From: Candidatus Rokuibacteriota bacterium
GTDB taxonomy: Bacteria > Methylomirabilota > Methylomirabilia > Rokubacteriales > CSP1-6
Assembly: GCA_023249095.1 (NCBI GenBank)
Contig: JAHFDK010000011.1
Span: forward strand, 1,165 to 65,164
Reading direction: 5' to 3'
DNA: 64,000 nucleotides
The notes below the pieces were generated by a model. That model searched no databases and was not told where the DNA came from. It was given only the letters and a program-made list of their open reading frames with translations. The position numbers and the translations under genes are program-made. This document shows, one piece after another, positions 28,093 to 54,468 of the stretch (position 1 is its first letter; each line of letters starts with the position of its first letter).

Positions 28093-28093
28093 C

Positions 28094-28891: not shown

Positions 28892-28895
28892 GCCG

Positions 28896-29648: not shown

Positions 29649-31102
29649 TCCCCTCGCTCACCGTCCTCGCGGCGGCTGGACTCATCGCGCTTTCTCTCAG
29701 CGCGGCACCGTCGCCGGTCGCGGCGCAGGCGGGGGACGCGGCGGCGGGGGAGGCCGTGTACGAGAGGAAGTGCGCGGGCTGTCACGGTGACAAGGGGGAT
29801 GGCAAGGGGCCGGCCGCCGAGCTGCTCGCCCCGAAGCCCCGCGACTTCACCGCGGGCCTCTACAAGGTTCGGACGACGGCGAACAAGGTCCCGACGGACC
29901 AGGATATCTTCCGGATCATCACGGACGGCATGCCCGGAACGTCCATGCCGGCGTGGGCGGTGCTCCCGGAAAAGGACCGGTGGAACCTCGTCGCGTATAT
30001 CAAGGCGTTTGCAGCGGAGAAGTTCAAGGAGGGCCCGAAGAAGCTGGAGCTGCCGAAAGACGTCGCTTCGTCGCCGGAGTCGATCAAGCGCGGCAAAGAG
30101 ATGTTCGAGGCGATCGAGTGCCACAAGTGTCATGGCACCGAGGGACGGGCCGACGGCCCCTCGCGCGCCGAGCTGAAGGACGAGTGGAGCAACCCGATCG
30201 CGCCCGCGAACCTCGCCAAGCCGTGGACCTTCCGCGGGGGCGCGGGCCGGACCGAGATCGCCACCCGGCTCGCCAACGGCGTCCTCGGCACCCCGATGCC
30301 CGCCTTTCTTGACAGTGTCGAGAAGCCCGAGGACATCTGGCACCTGACGAACTTCATTCTTTCGCTCGGCGCCGCGTCGCCGCGCTATGCCACGCTCGTC
30401 ACGGTCACCGCGGTGTCCGACGCGATCCCCGACGACCCGAACGCCGACTACTGGACGAAGGTCGCGCCGGGCAACATCCCGCTGATGGGGCAGGTGATCG
30501 TCGACCCGCGGAACTTCAATCCGGCGATCGATCTCGTGTCGATCCGCGCCGTCTACAACGACAGGGAGATCGCCTTTCACTTGACGTGGGACGACCCGAC
30601 CCAGTCCGCCGACGATCCGGCGAAGAAGCTCTACGCCGACGCGATCTCGCTCCAATTTCCTCCGCAAATCACCTCCGGTCCCGAGCGGCCGTACTTCCTG
30701 ATGGGCGACGGCTCGGACGCCGTCTACCTCCTGCGCTGGGAGAACGGCAAGGGCGTGAGCGAGGCGACGGCGAACGGCCCGACGAAGATCGCCCCCCTCG
30801 CGGGCGCCGAGGCGACGGGCAAGGCCGTGTACACCAACGGCCAGTATCGCGTCGTGATCAAGCGCCCGCTGGGGTCCAAGGACGCGGCGAGCCCGGCATT
30901 CAGTCCCGCGGTCTTCACGCCGGTCGCGTTCCAGGCCTGGGACGGCGGCGCCGGGGAGGCCGGCACGAAGATGTCGTTGACCTCATGGTACTATTTGCGG
31001 CTGGAGGAGCCGCAGTCGAACCGACGTTTCGTCATTCCTCCGGTCGTCGCAATCCTCACACTGGCGGTGATGCTGCTCGTGGTGCGAGTTGCGAACAGGT
31101 GA
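29645..31102 (+). CDS. Diheme cytochrome c fused to an ethylbenzene-dehydrogenase gamma-like (EB_dh/DOMON) heme domain, C-terminal TM anchor
   Basis: TTG start overlaps the previous TGA. CAGCH, CHKCH, KPRDFT, then HLTWDDPT, DAISLQFP, PYFLMGDG, AFQAWDG...KMSLTSW. Confidence 0.85.
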   Translation: MIPSLTVLAAAGLIALSLSAAPSPVAAQAGDAAAGEAVYERKCAGCHGDKGDGKGPAAELLAPKPRDFTAGLYKVRTTANKVPTDQDIFRIITDGMPGTSMPAWAVLPEKDRWNLVAYIKAFAAEKFKEGPKKLELPKDVASSPESIKRGKEMFEAIECHKCHGTEGRADGPSRAELKDEWSNPIAPANLAKPWTFRGGAGRTEIATRLANGVLGTPMPAFLDSVEKPEDIWHLTNFILSLGAASPRYATLVTVTAVSDAIPDDPNADYWTKVAPGNIPLMGQVIVDPRNFNPAIDLVSIRAVYNDREIAFHLTWDDPTQSADDPAKKLYADAISLQFPPQITSGPERPYFLMGDGSDAVYLLRWENGKGVSEATANGPTKIAPLAGAEATGKAVYTNGQYRVVIKRPLGSKDAASPAFSPAVFTPVAFQAWDGGAGEAGTKMSLTSWYYLRLEEPQSNRRFVIPPVVAILTLAVMLLVVRVANR

Positions 31103-31133
31103 GCACAACTCGAATTCAGGAGGAACCAGGGCA

Positions 31134-31832
31134 ATGCGTAAGGTAATCGGAGCGCTTCTGGCGATCGCGCTCGTCGTGGGCGTCGCCGCCGTCGCCCACC
31201 GCCCGGGGCCGGCCGGGGCGCAGGGAGGCGGGACCATCGAGGCCGCGGTGACGTACGCCGGCGCGGCGGTGGTCGAGAAGCTCAAGGTGAACAAGGACAC
31301 GGAGAAGTGCGGGACCGAGGCGCTGATCGAGAAGGTCGTGGTGGGCACCAACAAGGGGCTGGCGAACGCCGTCGTCTCCGTCCCGGGCGCCAAGGGCGCG
31401 CCGAAGGCGGTGAAGGCGACCGTCGACCAGCACGGCTGCAAGTTCGTCCCCCGCGTGGTCGCGATGACGCCGGGCGAGGTCGAGCTCAAGAACTCCGACG
31501 ACATCCTGCACAACATCCATACGTACTCGACGGCGAATCCGTCCATCAACAAGGCGCAGCCGAAGTTCAAGAAGGTGATGACCGAGAAGTTCGAGAAGCC
31601 CGAGATCATCAAGCTCACCTGCGACGTGCACAGCTGGATGCTCGGGTGGGTCGCCGTCATGCCGAACCCGTTCTTCGGCGTCACCGACGCGAATGGCGTG
31701 ACCAAGATCGAGAACGTGCCGCCCGGCAAGTACAACGTCGAGGTGTGGCACGAGACGCTCGGCAAGCAGACGAAAGAGGTCGAGATCAAGGCCGGGCAGA
31801 CGGCGAAAGTCGCGATCGAGATGAAAAAGTAA
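31134..31832 (+). CDS. Secreted carboxypeptidase-regulatory-like/cupredoxin-like protein 1
   Basis: Signal peptide, LHNIH, CDVHSWM, NVPPGKYNVEVWHE. Confidence 0.75.
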   Translation: MRKVIGALLAIALVVGVAAVAHRPGPAGAQGGGTIEAAVTYAGAAVVEKLKVNKDTEKCGTEALIEKVVVGTNKGLANAVVSVPGAKGAPKAVKATVDQHGCKFVPRVVAMTPGEVELKNSDDILHNIHTYSTANPSINKAQPKFKKVMTEKFEKPEIIKLTCDVHSWMLGWVAVMPNPFFGVTDANGVTKIENVPPGKYNVEVWHETLGKQTKEVEIKAGQTAKVAIEMKK

Positions 31833-31853
31833 GAGCCAGGAGGGTCGGCGCGC

Positions 31854-32606
31854 ATGCTTGACTGGTGGCTGCCGGAAAACGTTTCGACTTACGGCCAGGA
31901 GATCGACTGGCTCTTCCACCTCATCTACTACATCACCGGCGCGACCTTCATCCTGGTCTTTGTCACGATGCTGGTATTCCTCGTGATGTACCGGGATCGC
32001 CCCGGCCGGCGGGCTCGCTACACCCATGGCAACACAACGCTCGAGATCGTCTGGACGGTGGTGCCGGCGCTGATCCTGGTCATCCTCACGATCCTCAGCG
32101 TCCCCGCGTGGTCGAAGATCAAGATGACCATGCCGGAGACGGACTTCGTCGTGCAGGTGACGGCCAAGCAGTTCAACTGGCAGGTGACCTACCCGGGCCC
32201 CGACGGCCAGTTCGGTACGGCCGACGACAAGACGCTCTTGGACGAGATGCACGTCCCGGTCAACAAGGTCGTCCGGGTCATCCTGAAATCCCAGGACGTC
32301 ATTCACAGCTTCTTCGTCCCCCAGTTCCGGATGAAGCAGGACGCGGTCCCCGGCCGTGAGATCCGGCAATGGTTCGAGGTGGTCAAGCCCGGCAGATACG
32401 AGTGGCCGTGCGCGGAGCTGTGCGGCTTCGGACACTCGGGAATGCGGGGGTGGATCTATGTCCACACCCCCGACGAGTACGGGAAGTGGGCGGCGCAAAA
32501 CCTGACGGCGGAGGCTGCGCCGGCCGCCGCCGAGCCGAAGCCGGAGGGCACGAAGGCCGAGACGACCAAGGCCGAGCCTAAGAAAGAGGGGAAAGCCAAG
32601 AAATGA
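31854..32606 (+). CDS. ctaC: Cytochrome c oxidase subunit II
   Basis: Two TM helices, DVIHSF and CAELCGFGHSGM CuA ligands. No fused cytochrome c. Confidence 0.96.
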   Translation: MLDWWLPENVSTYGQEIDWLFHLIYYITGATFILVFVTMLVFLVMYRDRPGRRARYTHGNTTLEIVWTVVPALILVILTILSVPAWSKIKMTMPETDFVVQVTAKQFNWQVTYPGPDGQFGTADDKTLLDEMHVPVNKVVRVILKSQDVIHSFFVPQFRMKQDAVPGREIRQWFEVVKPGRYEWPCAELCGFGHSGMRGWIYVHTPDEYGKWAAQNLTAEAAPAAAEPKPEGTKAETTKAEPKKEGKAKK

Positions 32607-34357
32607 GCGCCACCAGCGCGACCGCGCACGCGCACGTCGAGCACGGCGGCCACCACGAGCTCGGCTTCGTGCGGACCTACATCTTCTCCACGGACCACAA
32701 GATGATCGCCCGGCAGTTCCTGTTCCTGGGGCTCTTCATGATGATCCTCGGCGGGCTGCTCGCGCTCGTCGTCCGCTGGCAGCTCGCCTGGCCCGAGACG
32801 GCCGTGCCCGGCCTCGGCGGCATCCTCACGGAGACGGGCGGCATCCTGGAGCCCAGCACCTACAACATGGCGTTCACGATGCACGCCACGATCATGATCT
32901 TCTTCGTGATCATGCCGATCCTCGCGGGCTGCTTCGGGAATTTCTGCATCCCGCTGATGATCGGGGCGCGCGACATGGCGTTTCCGTTTCTGAACATGCT
33001 TTCATTCTGGGTGACGGGCAGCGCGGGCCTCATCATGCTCTCCGGCTTCTTCGTGGAGGGCGGCCACGCCGCCGCCGGCTGGACCTCCTACGCCCCGCTC
33101 TCGGCGGTTCCGGCGTACACGGGCGTGAACTGGGGCCAGAACATCTGGTGCATCAGCCTGTTCATCATGGGCGTCGGCTCGATGATGGGATCGATCAACT
33201 ACATCACGACGATCATCAACATGCGGGCGCCGGGCATGCAGCTCTTTCGGATGCCGCTCGTGGTGTGGTCGCTCTTCATCACGGCGATCCTGCTCCTCCT
33301 GGCCCTGCCGGTGCTCACGTCGGGCGTCGCCATGCTGCTGTTCGACCGCACGCTCGGCACGAGCTGGTTCAGGCCCTCGGGTGGCGGCGAGCCGCTCCTG
33401 TGGCAGCACCTCTTCTGGTACTTCGGCCACCCGGAGGTGTACATCCTGATCCTCCCGGCGATGGGCATCGCCTCCGAGATCCTGCCGGTCTTCTGCCGCA
33501 AGCCGATCTTCGGCTACCACGCGATGGCGTTCTCGATGATCGCGATCGCGTTCCTGTCCTGGATCGTCTACGGCCACCACATGTTCGTCAGCGGCATGAG
33601 CCCGGCCCTCGGAATGGCCTTCACGGTCACGACGATGGTCATCGCGGTGCCCTCGGCCATCAAGACGTTCAACTGGCTGGGCACCCTGTGGGGCGCCCGG
33701 ATCCAGTTCACCGTCCCGATGCTGAATGCGCTCGCGTTCGTCTCGATGTTCGTCATCGGCGGGCTCTCGGGGATCTTCATGGCCTCGACCCCGGTGGACA
33801 TCTACATCCAGGACACGTACTTCATCGTGGCGCACATCCACTACGTCGTCTTCGGCGGCTCGATCTTCGGCGCGTTCGCCGCGATCTACTACTGGTTCCC
33901 GAAGATGTTCGGCCGGATGACGAACACGGTCCTCGGCCACCTGCACTTCTGGCCGACGTTCGTGTTCTTCAACCTGACCTTCTTCCCGATGCACATCATC
34001 GGGGTCGGCGGCCAGATGCGCCGTATCTACAACCCGATGCAGTACGAGTTCCTCCAGCACCAGCAGCCCTGGAACGTGTTCATCACCGTGAGCGCGCTCG
34101 CGCTCGGCATCTCCCAGATCCCGTTCGTCGTCAACTTCTTCTGGTCGCTGTTCGCCGGCACGAGGGCGCCGCTGAACCCATGGAACGCCACCACGCTCGA
34201 GTGGACGGCGCCATCACCGCCCCCGCACCTGAACTGGGGCCCGACGCTGCCGACGGTGTATCGAGGCCCCTACGAGTACAGCTCGCCGGAGTCGAAGGAA
34301 GACTTCTTGCCGCAATCCACGCCCCCGGTGGGGGCCGCCGGAGCGCGGCGGCACTGA
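32603..34357 (+). CDS. ctaD: Cytochrome c oxidase subunit I, type A1
   Basis: TMHAT, WYFGHPEVY (A1 Glu), GHHMF, AHIHYV, D-channel ARDMAFP, K-channel SAIKTF. Confidence 0.97.
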   Translation: MSATSATAHAHVEHGGHHELGFVRTYIFSTDHKMIARQFLFLGLFMMILGGLLALVVRWQLAWPETAVPGLGGILTETGGILEPSTYNMAFTMHATIMIFFVIMPILAGCFGNFCIPLMIGARDMAFPFLNMLSFWVTGSAGLIMLSGFFVEGGHAAAGWTSYAPLSAVPAYTGVNWGQNIWCISLFIMGVGSMMGSINYITTIINMRAPGMQLFRMPLVVWSLFITAILLLLALPVLTSGVAMLLFDRTLGTSWFRPSGGGEPLLWQHLFWYFGHPEVYILILPAMGIASEILPVFCRKPIFGYHAMAFSMIAIAFLSWIVYGHHMFVSGMSPALGMAFTVTTMVIAVPSAIKTFNWLGTLWGARIQFTVPMLNALAFVSMFVIGGLSGIFMASTPVDIYIQDTYFIVAHIHYVVFGGSIFGAFAAIYYWFPKMFGRMTNTVLGHLHFWPTFVFFNLTFFPMHIIGVGGQMRRIYNPMQYEFLQHQQPWNVFITVSALALGISQIPFVVNFFWSLFAGTRAPLNPWNATTLEWTAPSPPPHLNWGPTLPTVYRGPYEYSSPESKEDFLPQSTPPVGAAGARRH

Positions 34358-34374
34358 TCGAGACGGGGAGATCG

Positions 34375-35415
34375 GTGGCGTACCGTCTGGCGCTCGCGAC
34401 CCTGGCCGCGACGGGCGTGCTCATCCTTCTCGGGGGGCTGGTCACGAACACGGGCGCGGCCCTCGCGGTGCCCGACTGGCCGAGCACGTTCGGCTACAAC
34501 ATGGTCCTCTTCCCCTGGTCGCGCATGGTGGGCGGCATCTTCTACGAGCACAGCCACCGGCTGATGGGCGCGCTCGTCGGCCTGCTGACCCTGGCGCTGA
34601 CCGCGCTACTGTGGCGCGAGGGCCGACTGCGCCGGCTCGGCCTCGTTGCGGTGGCCGTCGTCCTCGCCCAGGGCGTGCTCGGCGGGCTACGTGTCGTGCT
34701 TCTGGAGAACACGCTGGCCATCGTCCACGGCAGCCTGGCCCAGGCCTTCTTCGCCCTGCTCGCGGCGATCGCTCTGCTGACGGCTCCGCGCGGGCGCGTG
34801 GCCGGGGCCCGGGTCGAGCCAGCGTTGAAAGGCTTGACCGTGCTCGCAGCTGCGCTCGTGTATGCGCAGATCGTGTTCGGCGCGCTCCTGACTCACGCCG
34901 GACGCATCGACCTTCACCTGGCGGGTGCCGTCCTCGTGTTCGCCATCGTGCCGATTGTCACGGCGCCGCTGCGCCGGACCGGAGACGCGGTAGCGGCGCC
35001 GGTCTCGCGGCTGTTGCTCGTTCTGCTCGGCGCCCAGCTTCTCCTCGGCGTCGGCAGCTTTCTGGCGAGGTTCTCACCGTTCTGGATCCCCGGTGAGCAG
35101 CTCGCCGGGGTCGCCCTGCCAGTAGCGCATCGATTGGTCGGCAGCCTCATCCTGGCCGCCATCGTGATTCTGTCAGTCCGGGTCCATACTGTAAACGCCG
35201 AGCCGGAACGGGTTGATCAGGCGCCACGGAGCCACGCCGCATCTGTCTCGGGCCACCCGCGGTCCGACGCGGCCTCACGGACCCCGCTCCAACAAACCCA
35301 CGCCGCATCGGTCTCAGGCCACCCTCGATCCGAGCCGGCCGACGAACGGAGCCACGCCGCATCGGTCTCAGGCCACCCTCGATCCGAGCCGGCCTCACGG
35401 ACCCCGCTACAATGA
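34375..35415 (+). CDS. ctaA: Heme A synthase (CtaA/COX15 family) with a repetitive His-containing C-terminal tail
   Basis: AVPDWP, EHSHRL, VHGSLAQ, HLAG, AHRL. GTG 34375 follows GGGGAG. Confidence 0.85.
   Translation: MAYRLALATLAATGVLILLGGLVTNTGAALAVPDWPSTFGYNMVLFPWSRMVGGIFYEHSHRLMGALVGLLTLALTALLWREGRLRRLGLVAVAVVLAQGVLGGLRVVLLENTLAIVHGSLAQAFFALLAAIALLTAPRGRVAGARVEPALKGLTVLAAALVYAQIVFGALLTHAGRIDLHLAGAVLVFAIVPIVTAPLRRTGDAVAAPVSRLLLVLLGAQLLLGVGSFLARFSPFWIPGEQLAGVALPVAHRLVGSLILAAIVILSVRVHTVNAEPERVDQAPRSHAASVSGHPRSDAASRTPLQQTHAASVSGHPRSEPADERSHAASVSGHPRSEPASRTPLQ
35226..35412 (+). repeat. Three-copy in-frame direct repeat at the ctaA 3' end
   Basis: ~43-bp core CCACGCCGCATCGGTCTCAGGCCACCCTCGATCCGAGCCGGCC at 35232, 35298 and 35352 (periods 66 and 54 nt), encoding HAASVSGHPRS x3. 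Confidence 0.92.
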
Positions 35416-36338
35416 CCCCGCCCACGCTCGACACGGCCCGGGTCCCGCCCCAGGCGATCGTCGTCGCGCTCGCACGCGACCGCCGTCGCGTTGTCGTCGA
35501 CCTGGTCGCCCTCACGAAACCGCGCGTCGTCCTCATGATCCTGGTGACGACGGTCGTCGGATACTATGTCGGGCTGACCGGCGCGCCAGACTACGTCAGG
35601 CTCGTACACCTGCTGCTCGGCACGATGCTGGCCGCCGGCGGGACACTCGCGCTGAACCAGTACTGGGAACGGGACGTGGACGCCCGAATGGAGCGCACGC
35701 GCGTGCGCCCGCTGCCGGACGGGCGGCTCGCGCCCCTCGAGGCGCTCCTTTTCGGCAGCGCGGTCACCGTGGCCGGACTCTGTTACCTCGGCACATTTGT
35801 GGGTCCGCTTGCGCTGCTCGTGACCGCGGCGACGACTGTGCTCTATCTCTTCGCCTACACGCCGCTCAAGCTCCGGACGCCGTTCTGCACGATCATCGGG
35901 GCGGTGCCCGGCGCGTTGCCGCCCGTGACGGGCTGGGTGGCGTCGCGGGAGGACTTCGGGATCGGTGCCTGGGTGTTGTTCGGCATCCTGTTCCTCTGGC
36001 AGTTGCCCCACACGCTTGCCATCGCGCGCCTCTACCGCGACGACTACGCCCGGGCGGGCGTACGGCTCCTGCCCGTTGTCGACGCCGAGGGAACCAGCAC
36101 CGAGCGGCAGATCGTCACCGGCTCCCTGGCGTTGCTCGCCGTGAGCTTGTTGCCAACGCTGATCGGCCTGGCCGGTCCGGTCTACTTCGTGGGCGCTTTC
36201 CTGCTTGGCACGGCCTTCGTCGCCCTCGGTACGCGCCAGGCACTGACGCCGTCGGCCGGCGCGGCCCGGCGTGTGCTGTTCGCGTCGCTGTTGTACCTGC
36301 CGGTCCTTCTCGCCCTGCTGGCCTTCGACAAGGTATGA
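35412..36338 (+). CDS. ctaB: Protoheme IX farnesyltransferase (heme O synthase)
   Basis: LTKPRV, NQYWERDVDARMERTRVRPLP, YTPLK, LWQLPH. Confidence 0.96.
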   Translation: MTPPTLDTARVPPQAIVVALARDRRRVVVDLVALTKPRVVLMILVTTVVGYYVGLTGAPDYVRLVHLLLGTMLAAGGTLALNQYWERDVDARMERTRVRPLPDGRLAPLEALLFGSAVTVAGLCYLGTFVGPLALLVTAATTVLYLFAYTPLKLRTPFCTIIGAVPGALPPVTGWVASREDFGIGAWVLFGILFLWQLPHTLAIARLYRDDYARAGVRLLPVVDAEGTSTERQIVTGSLALLAVSLLPTLIGLAGPVYFVGAFLLGTAFVALGTRQALTPSAGAARRVLFASLLYLPVLLALLAFDKV

Positions 36339-36433
36339 CGAGCGACGCGCGGAACCGGCAGACGCTGCGGGTGCTCCTGACGATCATCGGGGCGCTGGTC
36401 GTCTCGGCGTTCCTCATCGGGATCCGCTGGTGA
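36335..36433 (+). CDS. 32-aa single-TM small protein
   Basis: MTSDARNRQTLRVLLTIIGALVVSAFLIGIRW*, coupled by ATGA and GTGA overlaps on both sides. Confidence 0.7.
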   Translation: MTSDARNRQTLRVLLTIIGALVVSAFLIGIRW

Positions 36434-37098
36434 CAACCCTCACCGAGCGCCCGCCGATCGCCCGGCGGACCAACGGGCACCGCCTGCCGCCGCCGCCGCC
36501 GACGGGAGGTGGCGACGGTCCAGAGCGCGAGCCGGGGCCGCGACGTCCGCTGCTGGACAACGTCGGGCTCGCGATGCTCTTCCTCATCTGCGGCGAGATC
36601 ATGTTCTTCGGGGGCCTCGTCTCGGCTTTTCTGATCTTGAGAATGACGTCGGCCCTGTGGCCACCGCCGCTCCAGCCGCGCCTGCCCATCGGCGTGACCG
36701 GCGTCAACACGCTGGTGCTGCTCGCCTCCAGCGTCGCGATGGTGGCGGCGAGCCGGGCGCTCGAGCGTGACGACATGCGAGGGCTCGTGCGACGGCTCCT
36801 GGTCGCCGCGGGACTTGGCGTGGCGTTCCTGGCCGTGCAGGGCTACGAGTGGGTCCGCCTCGTCAGCTTCGGGCTCACCGTCTCGTCTGGCGCGTACGGC
36901 GGAGCTTTCTACACGCTCATCGGGGCGCACGCGGCCCACGTCGTCGCGGCGGTCATCTGGGTCGCCGCCATGGTTCTGCTCGCCGCCCGCGGCCGGTTCG
37001 CCGACGGCCGGACGGGACCGCTGCGGGCGTGCGCAATCTATTGGCACTTCGTCGTGGCGCTGTGGCCGATCCTCTACGTGGCGGTGTACCTGGTATGA
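36430..37098 (+). CDS. Cytochrome c oxidase subunit III family protein (first copy)
   Basis: FLICGEIMFFGG, NTLVLLASS, FYTLIGAH, YWHFV. Confidence 0.9.
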   Translation: MTTLTERPPIARRTNGHRLPPPPPTGGGDGPEREPGPRRPLLDNVGLAMLFLICGEIMFFGGLVSAFLILRMTSALWPPPLQPRLPIGVTGVNTLVLLASSVAMVAASRALERDDMRGLVRRLLVAAGLGVAFLAVQGYEWVRLVSFGLTVSSGAYGGAFYTLIGAHAAHVVAAVIWVAAMVLLAARGRFADGRTGPLRACAIYWHFVVALWPILYVAVYLV

Positions 37099-37361
37099 AG
37101 TCCTGGGGATTCGCCGCGCTGGCCTTGATCCTGACGCCGCGTTTCGCCCTGGCGTGCGCGTCGTGCATGGCGTCGCCGTTCGGCGACCGCACCTACACCT
37201 GGCCGTACCTCGGCCTCATCCTGCTGCCGTTCATCCTGATCGCCGCAGTCGTCGGTATCCTCGCGTACCTCGCCGGCTATCGCCCGCGGACCGTAGCGCG
37301 ACGGCTCGCGGCCCGCTTCGCCGTCAAAGACGCCCCTGAGATCATCAAGGAGACGACATGA
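37095..37361 (+). CDS. Small exported/membrane protein with a CxxC motif
   Basis: MKSWGFAALALILTPRFALACASCM..., one TM, overlapping start and stop codons. Confidence 0.7.
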   Translation: MKSWGFAALALILTPRFALACASCMASPFGDRTYTWPYLGLILLPFILIAAVVGILAYLAGYRPRTVARRLAARFAVKDAPEIIKETT

Positions 37362-37975
37362 GTCAGGTAGCCTCAATGCATGGGGCGGTGGAACCGGCCG
37401 AGTCGCCGCTCACCCCCGAAAGCTGGGGGAAGCTCGGCATGTGGATCTTCCTGGCGGGCGACGCCGTCGGCTTCGGCACGCTCCTCGCCGGCTACGGCGC
37501 GATGCGGGCTACCAGCGCCGACTGGCCCTCGCCATACGAAGTCCTCGGCATCAACCTGACGGCCGCGATGACCTTTCTGCTCATCTGCTCGAGCGTGACG
37601 ATGGTGAAGGCGCTGGAGTGGCTGGGGAAGGGGGACAAGACCAGAGCGAACAGGTTCCTCTTCTTCACCGCGCTCGGTGGCGCGATCTTCGTCAGCCTGC
37701 AGGCATACGAGTGGACGCACCTGATCCACCGGGGGCTCCACATCAACGGCAACCCGTGGGGCGCCTCGCTCTTCGGCACGTCCTTCTTCCTCGTGACGGG
37801 CTTTCACGGCCTGCACGTGACCGGCGGCGTCATCTACCTGCTCTCGATCATGAGGGTCGTCGCCCGGCGCCCCTCGCCCGCGGCGAGCTACAACGCCGTC
37901 GAGATCACCGGGCTCTACTGGCACTTCGTCGACCTCGTCTGGATCATGGTGTTCACCTTCATGTACCTCCTGTAG
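37358..37975 (+). CDS. ctaE: Cytochrome c oxidase subunit III family protein (second copy)
   Basis: GKLGMWIFLAGD, TFLLICSSVTM, TGFHGLHV, LYWHFVDLVW. Confidence 0.92.
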   Translation: MSQVASMHGAVEPAESPLTPESWGKLGMWIFLAGDAVGFGTLLAGYGAMRATSADWPSPYEVLGINLTAAMTFLLICSSVTMVKALEWLGKGDKTRANRFLFFTALGGAIFVSLQAYEWTHLIHRGLHINGNPWGASLFGTSFFLVTGFHGLHVTGGVIYLLSIMRVVARRPSPAASYNAVEITGLYWHFVDLVWIMVFTFMYLL

Positions 37976-39497: not shown

Positions 39498-41405
39498 ATG
39501 TTCAAGCACATCTGCGTTCCGGTGGACAACTCGGATCATTCGAACCGCGCGATCGACCTGGCGGTCGAGTTGGGCCGGACGTGCGGCACGAAGCTCACGG
39601 GCATCCACGTCTACGCCGCGCGCCTCCACGACTACCGGTTCAAGCAGATGGAGTACACGCTCCCCGAGGAGTACAAGGACGAGAACGAGCTCGAGCGCCA
39701 GCGGAAGATCCACGACTCGCTGATCGCGATGGGGCTGCAGCTCATCTCCGAGTCGTACCTCGATGTGATGGCGCGCAAGGCGGTGGAGGCCGGGCTCGCC
39801 TTCGAGCCCAAGATGATCGACGGCAAGCATTACAAAGTCCTCGTCGAGGACTGCCTCGCCGCCGACTACGACCTCGTGGTCATGGGCGCCCTCGGCATGG
39901 GCGCGGTGAAGGACAGCCAGCTCGGCTCCGTCACCGAGCGGTTCGTCCGCCGCGTGACACGCGACACGCTGATCGTGCGCAACACCGACCCGTTGCTAGA
40001 TAAGCAGGGCGCGATCGTCGTCTGCCTCGACGGCTCGCCACAGTCCTTCAACGGCCTCAAGCTCGGCATCGAGCTCGCGACGGCCCTCCGCCGGCCGCTC
40101 CAGGCCATCGCCGTCTACGACCCGTACCTTCACTACGCGATGTTCAACGGCATCGTCGGCGTGTTGACTGAAAAAGCATCCAAAATCTTTCGATTCAAGG
40201 AACAAGAGCAACTGCACGAGGAGATCATCGATACCGGGTTGGCCAAGATCTACCAGTCGCATCTGGAGATCGGCCGCAAGCTCGCCGCCGAGGCGGGGGT
40301 CGAGCTCGCCATCACGCTCCTCGACGGCAAGTGCTTCGAGAAGATCCTGACGTTCGTTCGCAAGGAGCAGCCGTGGCTCCTCATCCTGGGGCGGGTCGGC
40401 GTACACTCGGAGGAGAACGAGGTCGACCTCGGCTCTAACACCGAGAACATTCTGCGGCTGGCCCCGTGCAACGTGCTGCTCACGGGCGGCAAGTTCTATC
40501 CGCCGCTCGACGTCAAGGCCGAGGAGATCATCTCCTGGACGGAGGAAGCGGAGGCGCGGATGGAGCGGGTGCCGCCCCAGGTGAAGGGCGTCGCGCGCAC
40601 GGCGCTCCTGCGCTATGCGATCGAGCAAGGCCATACCGTCGTCACCAACAAGGTCATCGACGAGGCGATGGCCATCTTCATGCCGACGCGCATGGCCGAG
40701 CGGATGCAGATCCTCGCCGAGGACGTCGCGATCGCGCAGCTCCGTGCTGAGACGCAACCGGCCACGGCGATTTGCTCCGTCTGCGGCTACACGGTCAAGG
40801 GGCCCAACCCCGTCGTCGCGTGCCCGGTGTGCAAGGCCACCGCCGACAAGTTCCAGGTCATCTCGAAGGAGGCGATCGAGGCGATCGCCACCCAGGAGGG
40901 CGGGATCGAGGCGGAGGAGTCGCTGCCCGGCGTCCAGGTGAAATGGTCCGCCGAGGCGCGCGACGCGCTACGCGAGGTGACCGACGCCTACCTCCGACGC
41001 CGCGCCAAGGCGCGAGTGGAGAAGTACGCGCGCTCGCGGAAGATCCCTGTCATCACCTGCCAGCTCGCCCTGCCGATGATCGAGGAGACCGTCGGGCGGG
41101 AGAAGCTCGGGGCGGGCTGGGACACCCTGCTCGCGAGGACGAAGTTCGAACCGGCCGATCTCCCCGGTGCCTCGACGAGGGGTGACAGCGCCGGCTTCGG
41201 GTGGACCGAGGAGGCGACGGCGCGGCTCAACCGCGTTCCCGCCGGATTCATGCGCGACATGACGCGCGAGGAAGTAGAGCGTGTGGCGGCCGCCAAGGGT
41301 GTGACCACCATCGATCTCGCGGTGTGCGAAGAGGGCATCGGGCACGCGCGCGAGACCATGAACGAAGTGATCGCTGGGTACGTCTCGAACAAGAAACCGC
41401 GATAA
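39498..41405 (+). CDS. Universal stress protein (two USP domains) fused to a rubredoxin-like motif and three PCP_red-like helical domains
   Basis: HICVPVDNS, DLVVMGALG...LGSVTERFV; second USP IVVCLDGS, LGSNTENIL; CSVCG..CPVC; three W(T/S)xEA..RL..VP repeats. Confidence 0.85.
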   Translation: MFKHICVPVDNSDHSNRAIDLAVELGRTCGTKLTGIHVYAARLHDYRFKQMEYTLPEEYKDENELERQRKIHDSLIAMGLQLISESYLDVMARKAVEAGLAFEPKMIDGKHYKVLVEDCLAADYDLVVMGALGMGAVKDSQLGSVTERFVRRVTRDTLIVRNTDPLLDKQGAIVVCLDGSPQSFNGLKLGIELATALRRPLQAIAVYDPYLHYAMFNGIVGVLTEKASKIFRFKEQEQLHEEIIDTGLAKIYQSHLEIGRKLAAEAGVELAITLLDGKCFEKILTFVRKEQPWLLILGRVGVHSEENEVDLGSNTENILRLAPCNVLLTGGKFYPPLDVKAEEIISWTEEAEARMERVPPQVKGVARTALLRYAIEQGHTVVTNKVIDEAMAIFMPTRMAERMQILAEDVAIAQLRAETQPATAICSVCGYTVKGPNPVVACPVCKATADKFQVISKEAIEAIATQEGGIEAEESLPGVQVKWSAEARDALREVTDAYLRRRAKARVEKYARSRKIPVITCQLALPMIEETVGREKLGAGWDTLLARTKFEPADLPGASTRGDSAGFGWTEEATARLNRVPAGFMRDMTREEVERVAAAKGVTTIDLAVCEEGIGHARETMNEVIAGYVSNKKPR

Positions 41406-41552
41406 GCAGGGGCGAGGGGTGGGGATGGGGGTGCCTCCCGGGATCCGACTGCTGACTTCTGGGTCCGGCTAACTCTCGTGCTTCGCGCGCGTGCGACCCT
41501 GACTACACGGATCCCGGGAGGCACCCCCATCCCCATCCCCTCGCCCCTGCTT
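41404..41552. repeat. 44/45-bp inverted repeat around a 60-nt spacer (MITE-like or long RNA hairpin)
   Basis: Arms 41404-41447 and 41508-41552 are reverse complements apart from a single 1-nt bulge. Confidence 0.9.
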
Positions 41553-41554
41553 CC

Positions 41555-43021
41555 ATGGATCCCGACCGGCATGCCCGCGCCTCCATCCTGGGGTCTCTCG
41601 TCGTGACGGACTCGCCCTCCGGTCACGAGGCGGCTCCGGCGTCCGCGGGGTCGACGGCGGCGCCGCCGTATACCGCGTACAGCGTGTCGTGGAACCTGAC
41701 GCAGCGGTGCAATCTCGAGTGCTCCCACTGTTACATGTCGGCGTTCGCGGGCGCCGACACGCGAGGCGAGCTGTCCACCGACGAGTGCCGGCGCGTGATG
41801 GACGAGATAGCCCTCGTCAACCCGAACGTCTTCCTGATCCTGACCGGCGGTGAGCCGCTGCTCCGCAAGGATATCTGGGACATCGCCGCCTACGCTTCCG
41901 AGAAGCGGTTCACGACGGTGCTCGGCACGAACGGCGTGCTCCTGCGCGAGCGCGAAGCGAAGCTCATGCGGACGCACGGCGTCCTCGGTGCTTCGATCAG
42001 CCTCGACTCCACCGACCACGCCCGGCACGACGCGTTCCGCCGCCTGCCGGGCGCCTGGGAGGCCGCGGTGCGGGCCACCCGTGTGCTGTCTGACGCCGGC
42101 CTCGATTTCTCTCTCCACATGTCGGTGACCGACTGGAACGTGGGCGAGGTTCCCGCGATGATCGACTTGGCGAAGGAGCTCGGCGCGAAGGTGCTGAACT
42201 TCTTCTTCCTCGTGCGGACCGGTCGTGGGACGAACCTGACGGACGTCGATCCCGCGACCTACGAGCGTATCCTGACCTACCTCGCCCAGGTCCAGGGTGT
42301 CGGCGGCGGTCCTCCTTCCTTCGTGAAGGCGCTATTCGGAATGGGCGAGCGGCGCGGCCCTCAGACGTTCGAAGACCCGTGGTCCACCCCGGTGGGCCGC
42401 GCCGACGGGCTGCTCATTCGCGCGAAGTGCGCCCCGCACTTCCGGCGCATCCTCTACGGGATGAATCCGTCCTCTCCGCTCCTCCGGAACTACGCTCACG
42501 GCTCGTGCCCGGCCGGCAAGTACTACTGTCGCATCACTCCCGAGGGCGACGTCACGCCGTGCCCCTACATGCCGGTCGCGGCGGGCAGCCTGCGCGAGCG
42601 ATCCTTCGCCGACGTGTGGCGGACCGCGCCGGTGTTCGCCGACCTGCGCGACCCGAAGCTCGGCGGGCGCTGCGGCGCTTGCGAGTTCGCGAGAATCTGC
42701 GGCGGGTGCCGGTGCCGTGCCTACGCGACGTACGGCGACTACCTCGCGGAAGATCCCGCGTGCGCCTACCAGCCGGGCGCGCACGGCGGCCAGCTCATCG
42801 ACGTGCCGGCGTCGCTGACGTTCGGGCTTCCGGTCGACTACGAGCTCGCCTGGGACGAGGAGGCGCGCGCGCGGCTTCAGGCGATCCCTTCGTTCGCGCG
42901 CGGCATGGTGATCAAGGCCGTCGAGGCCTACGCGCGGGGTCGGGGCGAGACGACCATTACGAAAGAACTCCTCGCCGACGTCCGCTCGAAGTGGGGCTCC
43001 CGCTTCCGGCCCCGATCCTGA
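41555..43021 (+). CDS. Radical SAM/SPASM enzyme (NirJ/AhbC/AhbD-like) with a C-terminal PCP_red-like domain
   Basis: WNLTQRCNLECSHC, LTGGEP, SPASM CPAG...PCPY...CGACEFARICGGCRCRAY. Start may be GTG 41603. Confidence 0.88.
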   Translation: MDPDRHARASILGSLVVTDSPSGHEAAPASAGSTAAPPYTAYSVSWNLTQRCNLECSHCYMSAFAGADTRGELSTDECRRVMDEIALVNPNVFLILTGGEPLLRKDIWDIAAYASEKRFTTVLGTNGVLLREREAKLMRTHGVLGASISLDSTDHARHDAFRRLPGAWEAAVRATRVLSDAGLDFSLHMSVTDWNVGEVPAMIDLAKELGAKVLNFFFLVRTGRGTNLTDVDPATYERILTYLAQVQGVGGGPPSFVKALFGMGERRGPQTFEDPWSTPVGRADGLLIRAKCAPHFRRILYGMNPSSPLLRNYAHGSCPAGKYYCRITPEGDVTPCPYMPVAAGSLRERSFADVWRTAPVFADLRDPKLGGRCGACEFARICGGCRCRAYATYGDYLAEDPACAYQPGAHGGQLIDVPASLTFGLPVDYELAWDEEARARLQAIPSFARGMVIKAVEAYARGRGETTITKELLADVRSKWGSRFRPRS

Positions 43022-50032: not shown

Positions 50033-50824
50033 GTGAGAGAGAACACGGTGAAGAAGATCTGGGCGCGGGGCGAGGCGGTCGTCAACGGGTGGCTGTCGAT
50101 TCCGAGCTCGTTTGCCGCCGAGGTCATGGCCCACCAGGGGTTCGACTCGCTCACCGTCGACATGCAGCACGGTGTCGTGGATTACCAGACCGCGGTGACG
50201 ATGCTCCAGGCCGTCTCCACGACGCCGGTCATCCCGCTGGCCCGCGTGCCGTGGAACGATCCGGCGCTCCTCATGAAGATCCTCGACGCGGGCGTCTACG
50301 GCGTCATCTGCCCGATGATCAACACGCGGGCCCAGGCCGAGGCGCTCGTGGGCGCTTGCAAGTACGCCCCGCGGGGTTACCGGAGCTGGGGCCCCGTGCG
50401 CGCGTCGATCTACGCGGGCACCGACTACGGCGACCACGCCAACGAGGACCTGATCGTGATGCCCATGATCGAGACTGCCGAGGCGGTGAAGAACATCGAC
50501 GAGATCCTGCGCGTGCCCGGCATCGACGCGGTCTACGTCGGCCCGTCGGATCTCTCGCTCACGCTCGGCTGCAAACCGCGCCTGGACCAGACCGACCCAC
50601 CGGTGGTGGAGGCGCAGCAGACAATCGTCGAGGCGTGCAAGCGGCACGGGGTCGCCGCGGGGATCCACAACGCGACCGCCGCCTACGCGCAGAAGATGAT
50701 CGCGGCGGGCTACCAATTCGTCACGCTCGCGAGCGACAGCCGGTTCATGGCGGCCAAAGCGGCCGAAGAGGTCGCGGTGATCCGGAAGACCGGCGTGAAG
50801 ACCGGCACGCTGCCCGCGTACTGA
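50033..50824 (+). CDS. HpcH/HpaI aldolase family protein
   Basis: VDMQHG, ARVPWND, LDAGVYGVICPM, MIET, VGPSDL. Confidence 0.92.
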   Translation: MRENTVKKIWARGEAVVNGWLSIPSSFAAEVMAHQGFDSLTVDMQHGVVDYQTAVTMLQAVSTTPVIPLARVPWNDPALLMKILDAGVYGVICPMINTRAQAEALVGACKYAPRGYRSWGPVRASIYAGTDYGDHANEDLIVMPMIETAEAVKNIDEILRVPGIDAVYVGPSDLSLTLGCKPRLDQTDPPVVEAQQTIVEACKRHGVAAGIHNATAAYAQKMIAAGYQFVTLASDSRFMAAKAAEEVAVIRKTGVKTGTLPAY

Positions 50825-51238
50825 ATGGGCCTCGACGAGGCTCAGATCCAGGGGTTCCTGGCGACCAAGGACGTCGTCGTGCTGGCGACCGTTCAGGCCG
50901 ACGGCGCGCCTCTCGCGATGCCGATGTGGTTCCTGCACGACCCCGCGGCGCTGACCATGATCAGTGTCGACGCCACTCAGAAGGTCCAGAACCTGCGCCG
51001 TGACCCGCGCGTGTGCGTGGTCGCCGAGGCCGTGGGCGGTGGCGGCGACGTGTGCGGGGTGACGGTACAGGGGCGCGCCGAGTTCTTGTCGGACACATCG
51101 CAGCGGCGCGCGCTCGTCGAGCGCTTCCACGAGAAGTACCGGCGCCTCGAGCGGCTCTGGAACGGCAAGACCATGCCGGCGAGCCGTGTCATGTTCCAGA
51201 TCGTCCCCTCGCGTGTGCGGAGCTGGGGGCTCGGATGA
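50825..51238 (+). CDS. Pyridoxamine 5'-phosphate oxidase-like (PPOX/F420-type split barrel) protein
   Basis: LATVQADGAP..PMWF, KVQNLRRDPRV. Confidence 0.85.
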   Translation: MGLDEAQIQGFLATKDVVVLATVQADGAPLAMPMWFLHDPAALTMISVDATQKVQNLRRDPRVCVVAEAVGGGGDVCGVTVQGRAEFLSDTSQRRALVERFHEKYRRLERLWNGKTMPASRVMFQIVPSRVRSWGLG

Positions 51239-51888: not shown

Positions 51889-52048
51889 CCGGCCGTCTCG
51901 GGATACCCTCGGCTCACGCGGGGACGGCTGACGCCGCGGGTCGGGTCAGACCGGGCGTGCGGAGCCGGGTCGTGCCTCTCTCAGGCCACTCTCGGATGAG
52001 GCGGCCTCGCGGCACCCGCTACAACGAACGCGGTAGCCAGGAGGCCCC

Positions 52049-52993
52049 ATGGGCACGCTCGATCGGCCGCGAGGAGACGGCGTGACGGAGACCAAGTTCA
52101 CGATCATCGACGGCGGGCGAGTGGCTGAGGTCGGCGAGCGAGAAGGCGTCGAGCTCGCGAAGCGAGCGGAGGCCATGGGGCGTCCGGTAGCGGTCGCCCG
52201 CGACGAGGGGGTCGCCTACCTGGGCACGAGCGCCCGCGAGCGGGCGAAGGTGCTCGCCTCGCTCGAAGCGCCGGACTTTACGCTCCCTGACCTCGACGGA
52301 CGGGTGCACACGCTCTCCCGGCACCGCGGTACGAAGGTGCTCCTGGTCGCCTATGGCTCGTGGTGAGGGTGCCGCCTCGACCTGCCGGTCTGGCAGGCGG
52401 TGTACGAGGAGCTGCGAGGGTACGGCTTCACCGTCATCACGGTGGCGCTCGACCGGAGCGCCGAGGACGCGCGTCCCTGGATCGAGGCGGCGAAGCCCGC
52501 GCACCCGTCACTGATCGACACCGCGCACATGCTCGCCGACCTCTACAACATCGTGAACGTGCCGACGATCCTCTGGATCGACGAGCGCGGGCGGATCGTC
52601 CGACCGAACGACGTCGCGTTCGGCACCGACATCTTCAAGTACATCACCGGGCTCGAGGCGGCCAGGCATCTCGCGGCGCTCCGTGCATGGGTGCGCGGCG
52701 AGGCGACGGCGCTGCCGGAGGCGCGCGCCCGTGCGCTCCAGTCGTTGCCGACGGACGGGGACCAGCAGGCGCGCGCCGAGTTCGGCCTGGGCGAATGGCT
52801 CTACACCAGGGGACGGACGGAGGCGGCCGGACGCCATTTCGTGAGAGCCGGCGAGTTAGCGCCCCACGACTTCACGATCCGACGCGGGACGATGCCGATG
52901 CGCGGGATCGATCCGATGGGGCCGAAGTTCCGCGAGATGCTCGGGGCGTGGGTCCAGGCAGGGAACCCTTACTATCGACCGTTACCGGAGTGA
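52049..52993 (+). CDS. Selenocysteine-containing redoxin (ResA/TlpA/AhpC-like, WUGC motif)
   Basis: ORFs 52049-52366 and 52400-52993 are in the same frame. Read-through of TGA 52364-52366 gives APDFTLPDLDG...LVAYGSW-U-GCRLDLPVWQ, a continuous thioredoxin fold. Confidence 0.85.
52367..52402 (+). promoter_or_regulatory. Bacterial SECIS element
   Basis: Hairpin CCTGCC-GGTCT-GGCAGG at 52381-52397, starting 15 nt after the UGA, with a lower stem TGCCG/CGGTG. The apical GGUCU resembles the E. coli fdhF SECIS. Confidence 0.75.
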
Positions 52994-52996
52994 CCA

Positions 52997-53989
52997 ATGG
53001 GAATGCTCAGCGGAAAGACAGCACTGGTGACAGGCGCCGGACGTGGCATCGGCCGCGGGATCGCGATCGCGCTCGCCGTGGCGGGCGCCAAGGTGGTCGT
53101 CAATGACCTGGGCGCCTCGCTCAGCGGGGAAGGCGTCGAGGCGACTCCCGCCCAGTCGGTCGTCAACGAGATCGTCAAGGCGGGCGGCACCGCGCAGCCC
53201 AACTACGGCTCGGTGGCGGACATCGCCCAGGCCGCCGCGATGGTCCAGCAGGCCATCGACGCGTGGGGCCGGATCGACATCGTGGTGCACGTCGCCGGCA
53301 TCTTGCGCGACCGGATGATCTTCAACATGACCGAGGCCGAATGGGACGCGGTGCTCGCCGTGCACCTCGATGGCATGTTCAACGTGGTGCGCGCCGCCTC
53401 CGGCTCGATGCGCGAACAGAAAGGAGGCCGCATCATCAGCATGTCGTCGGTGTCCGCCCTCGGCGCGCCCGGGCAGCCCAACTACGCGGCGGCGAAGGCC
53501 GGCATCATCGGCCTCACGTGGTCTACCGCGAACGCGATGGCGAAGTACGGCGTGACGGTGAACGCGATCATGCCGAGCGGCGCCACGCGCATGATCGACT
53601 CTACCCCACGCGGACGGCAGGTCTTCGAGTCGACCGGTAAGTGGCCGAGCGAGCTGGCCGCGGGAACCGACCGCGACCCCGACAACGTCGCGCCCATCGT
53701 CGTCTACCTGGCGAGCGACGCCGCCGCGAACGTGAACGGCCAGGTCTTCCACGCCCGGGGCTACGGCTACACGCTGCTCGCCCAGCCGCACGCCGTGCGG
53801 CACATCAGGGCCGATCGTCGCTGGGATCCCGAGGAGCTCGTGAAGATCTTCCCCGAGACGCTCGGCGCCAACCTCAAGCAGCCGCCGAGCATCGAATTCG
53901 GTCAGAAGCTCGACGAGCGCCCCGCGGACGAGTGGCGGGACCTCGGTGCGGGTCGGCGCTTCTGGAAGTCCCGCTACGAGGAGCCGTGA
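52997..53989 (+). CDS. Short-chain dehydrogenase/reductase
   Basis: TGAGRGIG, VVNDLG, GILRD, NYAAAK. Confidence 0.93.
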   Translation: MGMLSGKTALVTGAGRGIGRGIAIALAVAGAKVVVNDLGASLSGEGVEATPAQSVVNEIVKAGGTAQPNYGSVADIAQAAAMVQQAIDAWGRIDIVVHVAGILRDRMIFNMTEAEWDAVLAVHLDGMFNVVRAASGSMREQKGGRIISMSSVSALGAPGQPNYAAAKAGIIGLTWSTANAMAKYGVTVNAIMPSGATRMIDSTPRGRQVFESTGKWPSELAAGTDRDPDNVAPIVVYLASDAAANVNGQVFHARGYGYTLLAQPHAVRHIRADRRWDPEELVKIFPETLGANLKQPPSIEFGQKLDERPADEWRDLGAGRRFWKSRYEEP

Positions 53990-54468
53990 AGACCGTCCTC
54001 ATGGTGTGCCACGCCAACACCGCCCGGAGCGTGATGGCCCACGTGCTCCTGGAGCGGATGTTGGCGGGGCGCGGTGTCGACGGCGCCATCCGCGTCAGAT
54101 CGGGAGGGATCGCCAACTACGCGCGGGACGGCATGCTCGCCTCGCTCGACGCGCGCCTGGCGTTGCGCGAGGAGGGCATCCATCTGGCCGAGGAGGACTT
54201 TGCCTCGACCGACCTGAAGCGCCACCGCCACCTCCTCGCCGAGGCGGACCTGATCCTGACGATGACCGCGCTCCAGAAGCAGATGCTCGGCGCGTTCGCC
54301 GAGGCTCACGATCGGTCCGTGTTCACGCTCCGGGAATTCGCCGGCGAGGCGGGCGACATCGACGATCCCGCCACTCAGGGCGAGGACGTCTTCCGGGCGT
54401 GCCGCGACGAGATCAAGCGTTGCCTGGAAAAGTCGGTGGGCCGGCTACTGATGATATTGTCGGGCTGA
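53986..54468 (+). CDS. Low-molecular-weight protein tyrosine phosphatase/ArsC-like protein
   Basis: VCHANTARS P-loop, ADLILTM, DIDDP. GTG overlaps the SDR stop. Confidence 0.85.
   Translation: MKTVLMVCHANTARSVMAHVLLERMLAGRGVDGAIRVRSGGIANYARDGMLASLDARLALREEGIHLAEEDFASTDLKRHRHLLAEADLILTMTALQKQMLGAFAEAHDRSVFTLREFAGEAGDIDDPATQGEDVFRACRDEIKRCLEKSVGRLLMILSG

Follow-up and report, generated by a model that had tools for sequence, protein, structure and literature searches.

Background

The closest described relatives of the gene reported here are thioredoxin-fold selenoproteins with a U-G-C motif, in which one residue separates selenocysteine (Sec, U) from a cysteine. A single UXC sequence was listed already in 2005 (PMC1088965). 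The Global Ocean Sampling (GOS) selenoproteome study of 2008 described the family 'Prx-like (UGC-containing)' (Prx, peroxiredoxin), with the domain pfam00578, the motif UGC, 46 Sec sequences and 855 Cys homologues, and found it to be commoner in non-marine samples (PMC2398784). A UGC-containing TlpA-family selenoprotein also appears in a 2026 review (PMC13188914), and NCBIfam holds the model NF041054, 'ResA-like WAxxUGC motif-containing protein' (WAxxUGC_long, an equivalog of 354 positions). In this report we describe a gene at positions 52049-52993 on the forward strand of a 64,000-nucleotide stretch of DNA from a Candidatus Rokuibacteriota bacterium (contig JAHFDK010000011.1), the whole of which we call the window. 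Judged by its sequence, the gene adds one more member to the published UGC family and belongs to a sister subfamily of the NF041054 model.

Two other groups of proteins are useful for comparison. Among solved structures, the central domain of the window's protein comes closest to ResA, TlpA, DsbE and StoA, extracytoplasmic thiol-disulfide oxidoreductases that are also its nearest relatives in sequence. Sep15 (SELENOF) is a eukaryotic protein resident in the endoplasmic reticulum, with a thioredoxin-like fold, a C-G-U centre and a selenocysteine insertion sequence (SECIS) in its 3' untranslated region; it is thought to form a selenenylsulfide and to act in disulfide isomerisation or reduction. 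It has the same one-residue Cys-Sec spacer as the window's protein in the reverse order (C-G-U as against U-G-C), a likeness for which no sequence relationship is shown.

We consider it likely, with a probability of about 85%, that the locus is a single gene for a cytoplasmic, three-part TlpA/ResA-like (Prx-like) selenoprotein of the UGC kind, in which a hairpin directs the decoding of Sec and the U-G-C pair carries out redox chemistry. A preliminary description of this DNA, made from its letters and open reading frames (ORFs), had already proposed a hidden selenoprotein, and had added that ResA-like proteins with a UGC motif had been noted and were functionally uncharacterised. Those of its suggested checks that were run all spoke for the proposal. 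What it says of ResA-like proteins agrees with NF041054 and with the published accounts (PMC2398784, PMC13188914), and a literature search found no experimental work on any member of the UGC family.

Results and discussion

One gene with an in-frame UGA

The features of the gene itself are as follows.

52039-52044, + strand: strong Shine-Dalgarno sequence AGGAGG, 4 nt 5' of the ATG (direct reading)
52049-52993, + strand: complete selenoprotein gene, predicted as one frame (tblastn with homologues and dN/dS across the TGA)
52364-52366, + strand: UGA probably read as Sec106 (in the column of the first Cys of CxxC; TGA/Cys alternation)

Translation of 52049-52993 gives a single frame of 314 codons whose sole internal stop is the TGA at 52364-52366, codon 106, while the gene's own terminator is the TGA at 52991-52993. 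The sequence around the internal stop is KVLLVAYGSW-TGA-GCRLDLPVWQAVYEEL, in which W-U-G-C-R occupies codons 105-109 and provides one Sec in a U-G-C redox motif. The TGA is thus located where the preliminary description had put it, within YGSW-U-GC. Mechanical ORF calling cuts the frame into pieces of 105 and 197 aa, and public gene callers have entered products of the same two lengths on the ENA contig, together with a 203-aa 'thioredoxin family protein'. The exact protein of the window was found on two ENA metagenome contigs and nowhere else. That the split ORFs are in fact one gene, as had been proposed, is supported by tblastn with homologues, which crosses the TGA and covers residues 8-314. 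When the fused protein was used to search the protein database, 2247 matches were obtained; nearly all of the best 120 of these (>100) were C-terminal fragments of 197-208 aa with 76-96% identity, which are the footprint of gene callers halting at a conserved TGA. The best database matches included two full-length proteins, P0068 and P0083, both with the motif SWCGC.

The ratio of nonsynonymous to synonymous substitution rates (dN/dS), calculated for the window against 12 relatives, was ~0.2-0.4 upstream of the TGA and 0.12-0.25 downstream, and the proportion of nonsynonymous differences was far below that of synonymous differences on both sides; both halves of the gene are under purifying selection. 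TGA is the ordinary stop of 29 of the 44 genes in the window, the redoxin gene included. A second gene with an in-frame TGA was not found in the window: the other in-frame TGA with coding-like flanks, at 50822-50827, is an ordinary junction where an HpcH-aldolase gene stops and a PPOX-class gene begins, the ATG coming directly after the stop and in frame with it.

If the TGA were a true stop, the locus would be a pseudogene, an assembly error or two small genes of 105 and 197 aa, and this is indeed how public gene callers annotate its two products. The probability of such an explanation is negligible. Selection on both sides of the codon, together with the use of TGA as a normal terminator here, excludes four readings, namely a pseudogene, an error of sequencing, a pair of separate genes and a reassigned genetic code. 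This TGA is shared by 126 unique sequences, spread over independent assemblies and phyla, which also disposes of the read error that had been named as grounds for rejecting the selenoprotein; furthermore, a split here would interrupt a single thioredoxin fold within its active-site turn, and the Cys homologues are continuous.

Alternation of Sec and Cys among homologues

Homologous gene copies were counted as unique sequences from species-representative genomes, drawn from two sets of loci, the second of which was seeded with a Cys form; the window was included in the count. At the Sec column, 126 of the 139 unique copies have TGA and the remaining 13 have TGC or TGT, which is the Cys/Sec alternation that had been suggested as a check. 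The homologues span Rokubacteria/Methylomirabilota, Chloroflexota, Actinomycetota, Proteobacteria, Myxococcota and Acidobacteriota. In the first 80 loci alone (Rokubacteria/Methylomirabilota, Tepidiformaceae and other Chloroflexota, Acidimicrobiales, Alpha- and Deltaproteobacteria, Myxococcota and Acidobacteriota), TGA was present in 90 of 91 copies and TGC in one. Every one of the 39 full-length database homologues that were aligned contains SWCGC, and S-W-C-G-C-R is invariant in them (39/39). The motif is YASW-U-GC or WASW-U-GC in close relatives and YGSW-U-GC in the window. Taken with the hairpin described below, this alternation strongly supports recoding of the UGA at 52364-52366 as Sec.

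Tepidiformaceae and other Dehalococcoidia carry two tandem UGC-redoxin paralogues ~1.1 kb apart, both with the TGA and the hairpin (loci L050, L053, L054, L056, L058, L065-L068 and L070). Among named strains, a TGA form is present in Rubrobacter marinus SCSIO 52915 (L329, NZ_CP045121.1), and Cys forms are present in Streptomycetaceae NBC_01309, Yinghuangia aomiensis, Streptodolium elevatio and Myxococcus eversor (L299, L311, L318, L327); such strains might serve as hosts for experiments. Some metagenome-assembled genomes (MAGs) of Rokubacteria/Methylomirabilota have a second type of UGC redoxin, with the motif TWASW-U-GC, a longer C-domain and ~44% identity to P0083 (L293, L296, L306; also L292, L294). 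The one member of this type that was scored against NF041054 (L293) reaches 311 bits, above the cut-off of that model. The Rokubacteria lineage therefore carries both UGC-redoxin subfamilies, seen in different MAGs.

The SECIS hairpin

According to the published rule, a bacterial SECIS has a stem of 6-8 bp and a conserved loop G ~20 nt after the UGA (PMC4605307). The geometry of a hairpin downstream of the TGA in the window, with a stem of 6-7 bp and a loop G ~20 nt from the UGA, fits this rule.

52381-52397, + strand: predicted apical SECIS hairpin, stem 52381-52386 with 52392-52397, loop GGUCU at 52387-52391
52375-52379 with 52405-52409, + strand: possible lower SECIS stem (paired in 77% of cells, weak covariation)

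The letters of the hairpin are CCUGCC / GGUCU / GGCAGG. Its 5-bp core CUGCC begins 15 nt after the UGA, where the preliminary description had placed a hairpin with a GGUCU loop, and loop positions G25 and U26 sit 22-23 nt after the UGA. Folded alone, the hairpin has an energy of -10.0 kcal/mol. The SECIS of E. coli fdhF (MG1655) has the same GGUCU loop at the same kind of site, within the coding sequence just 3' of the UGA; its G-U is at positions 23-24 counted from the U of UGA, compared with 25-26 in the window. Unlike fdhF and the general SelB hairpin, the hairpin in the window is without a 5' bulged U and has instead an unpaired 3' U28 beside the covarying pair 24:27.

Covariation was examined in an alignment of 51 nt from the TGA onward in 81 unique Sec forms. 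The structure tested, with columns 18-24 paired with 27-34, U28 unpaired and G25-U26 as the loop, is paired in 95.9% of cells, and sliding the 3' partners by 1-3 columns lowers the pairing to 31-49%. Pair 24:27 is G-C in 57 forms, C-G in 19, A-U in 2 and another combination in 3. Columns 24 and 27 are the third positions of a Pro and a Val codon, which makes this covariation synonymous. At pair 19:33, 80 forms have C-G and one has U-A (L074, TTG...CAA), a single full swap.

In the larger set of Sec forms, none of the 126 unique sequences has lost any of the five core pairs and G25 is invariant, with GU in 110 and GG in the remainder. The Leu codon in the stem is YTG (CTG or TTG) in all 126, whereas at other Leu codons of the same genes YTG makes up 48% and CTC alone 45%. 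The 13 Cys forms show the opposite pattern, since the core is intact in 6 of them and all features are kept in 1, that is, the element has decayed in 12 of 13. These results strongly support the view that the hairpin 15 nt 3' of the UGA is a cis element selected for recoding. The lower stem may tentatively be counted as part of the SECIS, and it is outside what the known bacterial SECIS model requires.

Selenocysteine machinery in related genomes

The preliminary description supposed that the organism uses Sec and suggested searching its genome for sel genes. The 64-kb window contains no tRNA, and tblastn found no SelA, SelB or SelD in the window or in the flanks of 80 redoxin loci. The genome collection was then scanned with a GC-rich back-translation of the pyridoxal-phosphate motif of SelA, GDKLLGGPQAG. 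This identified a locus with selA followed by selB (L120) from the same MAG, OBJ2_061818_090_8, as one of the redoxin loci (L051), and the SelA of L120 was used as a query to obtain a list of the top 80 selA loci, which belong to Rokubacteria/Methylomirabilota. Adjoining selB genes are found at 78 of these 80 loci, and tRNA-Sec (anticodon tca) is located ~1.3 kb upstream in 53 of the 60 that were scanned. Of 51 Rokubacteria MAGs with the TGA redoxin, 35 appear in the top-80 list; AR26, whose redoxin is 91% identical to that of the window, is among the selA carriers. The Rokubacteria lineage thus has tRNA-Sec, SelA and SelB, which bears out the supposition for close relatives that carry the gene and not for the source genome itself. 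E. coli SelD gave no tblastn match in the window or in the flanks of any relative's locus.

The sel locus of Rokubacteria/Methylomirabilota (L206-L285; for example L206, 1441-6700) consists of tRNA-Sec, selA and selB, without selD. In L206, two small ORFs of 177 and 162 aa are located between tRNA-Sec and selA. The window also contains a respiratory cluster at 26191-37975, which encodes a 633-aa Cyt_bd_oxida_I-like protein, two c-type cytochromes, COX2, COX1, a UbiA-family protein (haem O synthase-like) and two COX3 proteins; judging by these genes, the host is probably an aerobe that uses selenocysteine.

The UGA could conceivably be read through or recoded as Trp, Cys or Gly with no involvement of selenium. 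Near-cognate reading of UGA occurs at a low level in bacteria, and this lends no specific support to recoding of that kind. Such an explanation is very improbable: TGA ends 29 of the window's 44 genes, this gene among them, the SelB-type hairpin covaries and decays where the codon is TGC, and related genomes encode tRNA-Sec, SelA and SelB.

Protein architecture

For the domain searches, Cys was placed at the internal stop. The protein then appears to consist of three parts.

52049-52264, + strand: N-terminal extension (aa 1-72), apparently what is left of the N-domain seen in the family (alignments to P0083 and L016)
52265-52606, + strand: predicted ResA/TlpA-like thioredoxin-fold domain (aa 73-186) with the U-G-C centre (Pfam, PDB profile search, Foldseek)
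52616-52990, + strand: predicted C-terminal all-helical, family-specific domain (aa ~190-314) with a weak TPR-like stretch (P0083 model, subthreshold Pfam)

Pfam matched AhpC-TSA (PF00578; E 1.5e-14, 54.5 bits, cut-off 26) and Redoxin (E 5.3e-10) at residues 73-186, across the TGA, in agreement with the uninterrupted thioredoxin fold noted previously. Compared with the PDB, the family profile matches ResA, TlpA, DsbE and StoA at E 9e-22 to 1e-20. Its alignment to the ResA-like structure 3kcm sets WCG-CR against WCPPCR with a one-residue gap, so that Sec would stand at the attacking N-terminal Cys of CxxC with one spacer residue missing. The position of the nucleophile and the cis-Pro loop (NVPT) are kept as in ResA, TlpA, DsbE and StoA. 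ResA, TlpA and DsbE have a CxxC centre with Cys, in contrast to the U-G-C of the window, which is one residue shorter. These proteins are membrane-anchored or secreted, whereas the window's protein has two extra soluble domains and, at its N-terminus MGTLDRPRGDGVTETKFTIIDGG, no hydrophobic leader, signal peptide or membrane segment by inspection; it is therefore probably cytoplasmic, unlike ResA/TlpA. The substrates of the ResA group, apocytochrome c and ScoI/CoxB, find no support at the window.

The structure was modelled with AlphaFold2 for the Cys homologue P0083 and not for the window's protein (123-sequence alignment; predicted local distance difference test score 95.6, predicted TM-score 0.93). 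The P0083 model has three parts, namely a beta-rich N-domain (residues 1 to ~103, confidently folded), the thioredoxin fold and an all-helical C-domain (helices at 229-336). In a Foldseek search with this model only the middle part matched ResA (1st9, 1su9), with TM 0.83-0.85. By the profile and Foldseek matches, the central domain has a thioredoxin fold that includes the ResA-type central insertion.

The extra N-terminal domain that had been noted is present as an extension, but it is a remnant. Relative to P0083 and the Rokubacteria locus L016, the window's N-domain has a deletion of ~44 residues that includes a Cys-pair module, GWxLKPEGLCxxxxCVP, and has 11 extra residues at its N-terminus. 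A motif census found the module to be absent throughout the window's clade (L001-L015, L051, L075); in long forms of the family it is a second conserved Cys pair, located in the N-domain. The N-domain matches no Pfam family even at E <=10, and Foldseek gave thioredoxin-domain matches only. As for the C-terminus, which had been called TPR-like, it is all-helical in the P0083 model, but Pfam TPR_12 and TPR_2 match it below threshold (E 0.004-0.017). The motifs D[FW]T[IV]RR and PYY in this domain are invariant among the 39 homologues.

Place among known families

The window's protein shares the pfam00578/cd02966-type fold and the U-G-C motif with one Sec with the Prx-like (UGC-containing) family (PMC2398784, PMC13188914); both have many Cys homologues, and nothing that defines the family differs. 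The family has a non-marine bias, and the window resembles soil or groundwater Rokubacteria. NF041054 is the best NCBIfam match (E 1.5e-64), but the score of 218.5 bits is below its cut-off of 300. The better of two matched stretches covers profile positions 41-203 of 354, and no member of the window's clade was shown to match past position ~205. Controls from other clades (Actinomycetota with WAPY-U-GC, Burkholderiales, and the second Rokubacteria paralogue) score 302-397 bits, compared with 218-271 bits for the window's clade and the P0083 clade. The architecture described by NF041054 (N-domain, redoxin with x-x-x-W-U-G-C, helical C-domain) and its SECIS are the same in the window. In the motif, W-A-x-x-U-G-C becomes Y-G-S-W-U-G-C, with UGC kept, W replaced by Y and A by G; the C-domain of the window has diverged and its N-domain is truncated. 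Because the window's gene belongs to a sister subfamily, PGAP-style annotation misses it.

Possible function of the U-G-C centre

If the gene is decoded as we propose, a ribosome that meets the UGA at 52364-52366 would find SelB with Sec-tRNA(Sec) held by the hairpin at 52381-52397, the loop of which would offer G25/U26 ~22 nt downstream, and Sec would be inserted instead of termination taking place. Sec106 would stand at the start of helix alpha-1, at the site of the attacking Cys of a thioredoxin fold, where the loss of one spacer residue has produced U-G-C. The selenolate may attack an oxidised sulfur of a specific substrate, which could be a protein or a small molecule. The adduct would be resolved by Cys108, giving a selenenylsulfide within the protein, and the enzyme could be recycled by thioredoxin or another general thiol reductant. 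Specificity for the substrate might be supplied by the flanking N- and C-terminal domains.

The chances appear about even that the protein is a substrate-specific selenol/thiol-disulfide oxidoreductase, a reductase or an isomerase. We favour an oxidoreductase because the neighbours of the protein in sequence and fold are disulfide reductases and because the signatures of Prx and of glutathione peroxidase (GPx) are lacking. Disulfides of the C-x-C type are strained and more oxidising than those of CxxC. This strain and the mirror-image C-G-U of Sep15 would fit an isomerase or a reductase with fast turnover.

The preliminary description had named the protein a candidate peroxidase or reductase, a role that we likewise infer. 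In a peroxidase, a hydroperoxide would oxidise Sec106 to selenenic acid, Cys108 would resolve this to Se-S and thioredoxin would recycle the enzyme, as in GPx and Prx. AhpC-TSA is the best domain match, there is a weak match to GSHPx (E 0.0056), and some homologues carry a precomputed PF00255. The GPx motif is NVASxUG, and most members of the family have a similar A-S-x-U-G. The family was also filed as 'Prx-like' in 2008 (PMC2398784). Nevertheless, the Prx signature PxxxT/SxxC is absent, with Gly (Ala in relatives) at -3 from U and Leu at -7; the GSHPx match scores 16.7 bits against a cut-off of 27; and the neighbours in sequence and fold are the disulfide reductases ResA, TlpA, DsbE and StoA. 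A peroxidase thus seems somewhat unlikely.

A role for the U-G-C pair in the binding or transfer of a soft element (As, Hg, Cu, or else selenide or persulfide) in place of disulfide exchange is decidedly unlikely. The active site of SelD is U-G-C in many organisms, and that of E. coli SelD (L081) is C-G-C, in GAGCGCK, like the Cys forms of the family, which may be a coincidence. The long forms have a second conserved Cys pair in the N-domain, and the 2026 review lists other UxC/UGC selenoproteins that are annotated as metal-related (PMC13188914). On the other hand, no metal, arsenic or selenium-metabolism genes are conserved beside the redoxin gene, the adjoining phosphatase has a DP motif and, by inspection, is without the extra Cys pair of ArsC-type arsenate reductases, and the Cys pair of the N-domain is gone from the window's clade.

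Returning to the UGC selenoprotein of TlpA/ResA type, several results weigh against it or weaken one of its supports. Dinucleotide shuffles of the 57-nt stretch at 52364-52420 fold at least as stably as the stretch itself (z = +0.98, not significant), and since the sequence is GC-rich, folding energy is no evidence for a SECIS. Rfam found no SECIS or other family in the whole window at the gathering threshold, and gave only chance matches (E 4-8.5) at a permissive threshold on 52330-52450. The stem is within the codons of DLPxWQ, a motif whose D, L, P and W the Cys forms conserve as well, and part of the conservation of the hairpin is consequently at the level of the protein; it is the signals at synonymous sites, together with the decay in Cys forms, that make the case for a SECIS, and these comparative tests are decisive. 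In addition, the Sec machinery is known from close relatives and not from the source genome, the one-residue spacer could suit other chemistries equally well, and across phyla, no conserved partner gene was found in 141 loci.

Gene neighbourhood

Two genes follow the redoxin gene closely and are given for context only.

52997-53989, + strand: short-chain dehydrogenase/reductase (SDR)-family oxidoreductase, 330 aa, translationally coupled to the redoxin gene (Pfam adh_short; NCBIfam PRK07791-like)
53986-54468, + strand: low-molecular-weight protein tyrosine phosphatase (LMW-PTP)-like phosphatase, 160 aa, P-loop CHANTARS (Pfam LMWPc, E 2.4e-20)

The redoxin and SDR genes are separated by 3 nt, with the Shine-Dalgarno sequence of the latter within the last codons of the former, and the GTG start of the phosphatase gene overlaps the SDR stop (GTGA). 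The phosphatase has an atypical P-loop, C-H-A-N-T-A-R-S, and no NCBIfam match at E 1e-5. Upstream of the redoxin gene there are NUDIX, PPOX-class and HpcH-aldolase genes. The coupling to an SDR and an LMW-PTP that had been reported is thus real and tight, but it is a matter of synteny in Rokubacteria and does not extend to the family. An SDR match is found by tblastn in 34 of 51 Rokubacteria loci, one of these being an upstream match of ~34% identity (L044), and an SDR orthologue of the same family cluster is directly downstream in 32 Rokubacteria loci. The PTP is present in 45 of the 51 loci and in no locus outside the lineage; NUDIX is present in 42 of 51 and is confined to Rokubacteria. The gene order is therefore best read as lineage synteny and not as a partnership that defines the family, and it is possibly a real operon in Rokubacteria.

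When the flanking ORFs of the 141 loci were clustered all against all, only SDR-superfamily and alpha/beta-hydrolase neighbours recurred across phyla. The recurring SDR neighbours are from different subfamilies (PRK07791-like at the window, mycolate-reductase-like beside P0068), as abundant families give by chance, and an SDR or hydrolase was rejected as a family-wide partner.

One could also suppose that the window's clade is a distinct, uncurated UGC subfamily whose member is dedicated to switching or re-activating, by selenium redox chemistry, the LMW-PTP or the product of the SDR, and is not a general antioxidant. This idea draws on the score below the NF041054 cut-off, the loss of the N-domain Cys pair, the different C-domain and the position of the gene as the first of a coupled set with SDR and PTP. 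We regard it as quite unlikely.

Elsewhere in the window, two adjoining genes at 39498-43021 both end in PF08369 (PCP_red) domains, an unusual domain pairing; one encodes Usp, a rubredoxin-like domain and two PCP_red domains (635 aa), and the other a radical SAM/SPASM protein with a PCP_red tail (488 aa).

Conclusions

The family has been in print since 2008 and nothing is changed in principle by the gene described here; the question is what a U-G-C thioredoxin fold does. For annotation, the result matters in that this gene and hundreds of close relatives are at present entered in public databases as two pieces, an orphan of 105 aa and a fragment of 197-208 aa called 'hypothetical' or 'thioredoxin family', and NF041054, the sole curated model that rescues such genes, falls short of the window's subfamily. 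The family also provides a clean natural experiment on the bacterial SECIS, which is fixed in 126 Sec forms with synonymous compensation and eroded in Cys forms. A Methylomirabilota MAG has been predicted to have 63 selenoprotein genes (PMC13188914). With their conserved locus of tRNA-Sec, selA and selB, the soil bacteria of the Rokubacteria/Methylomirabilota would join the lineages known to carry such a locus, which fits the very large selenoproteome reported in the phylum (PMC13188914).

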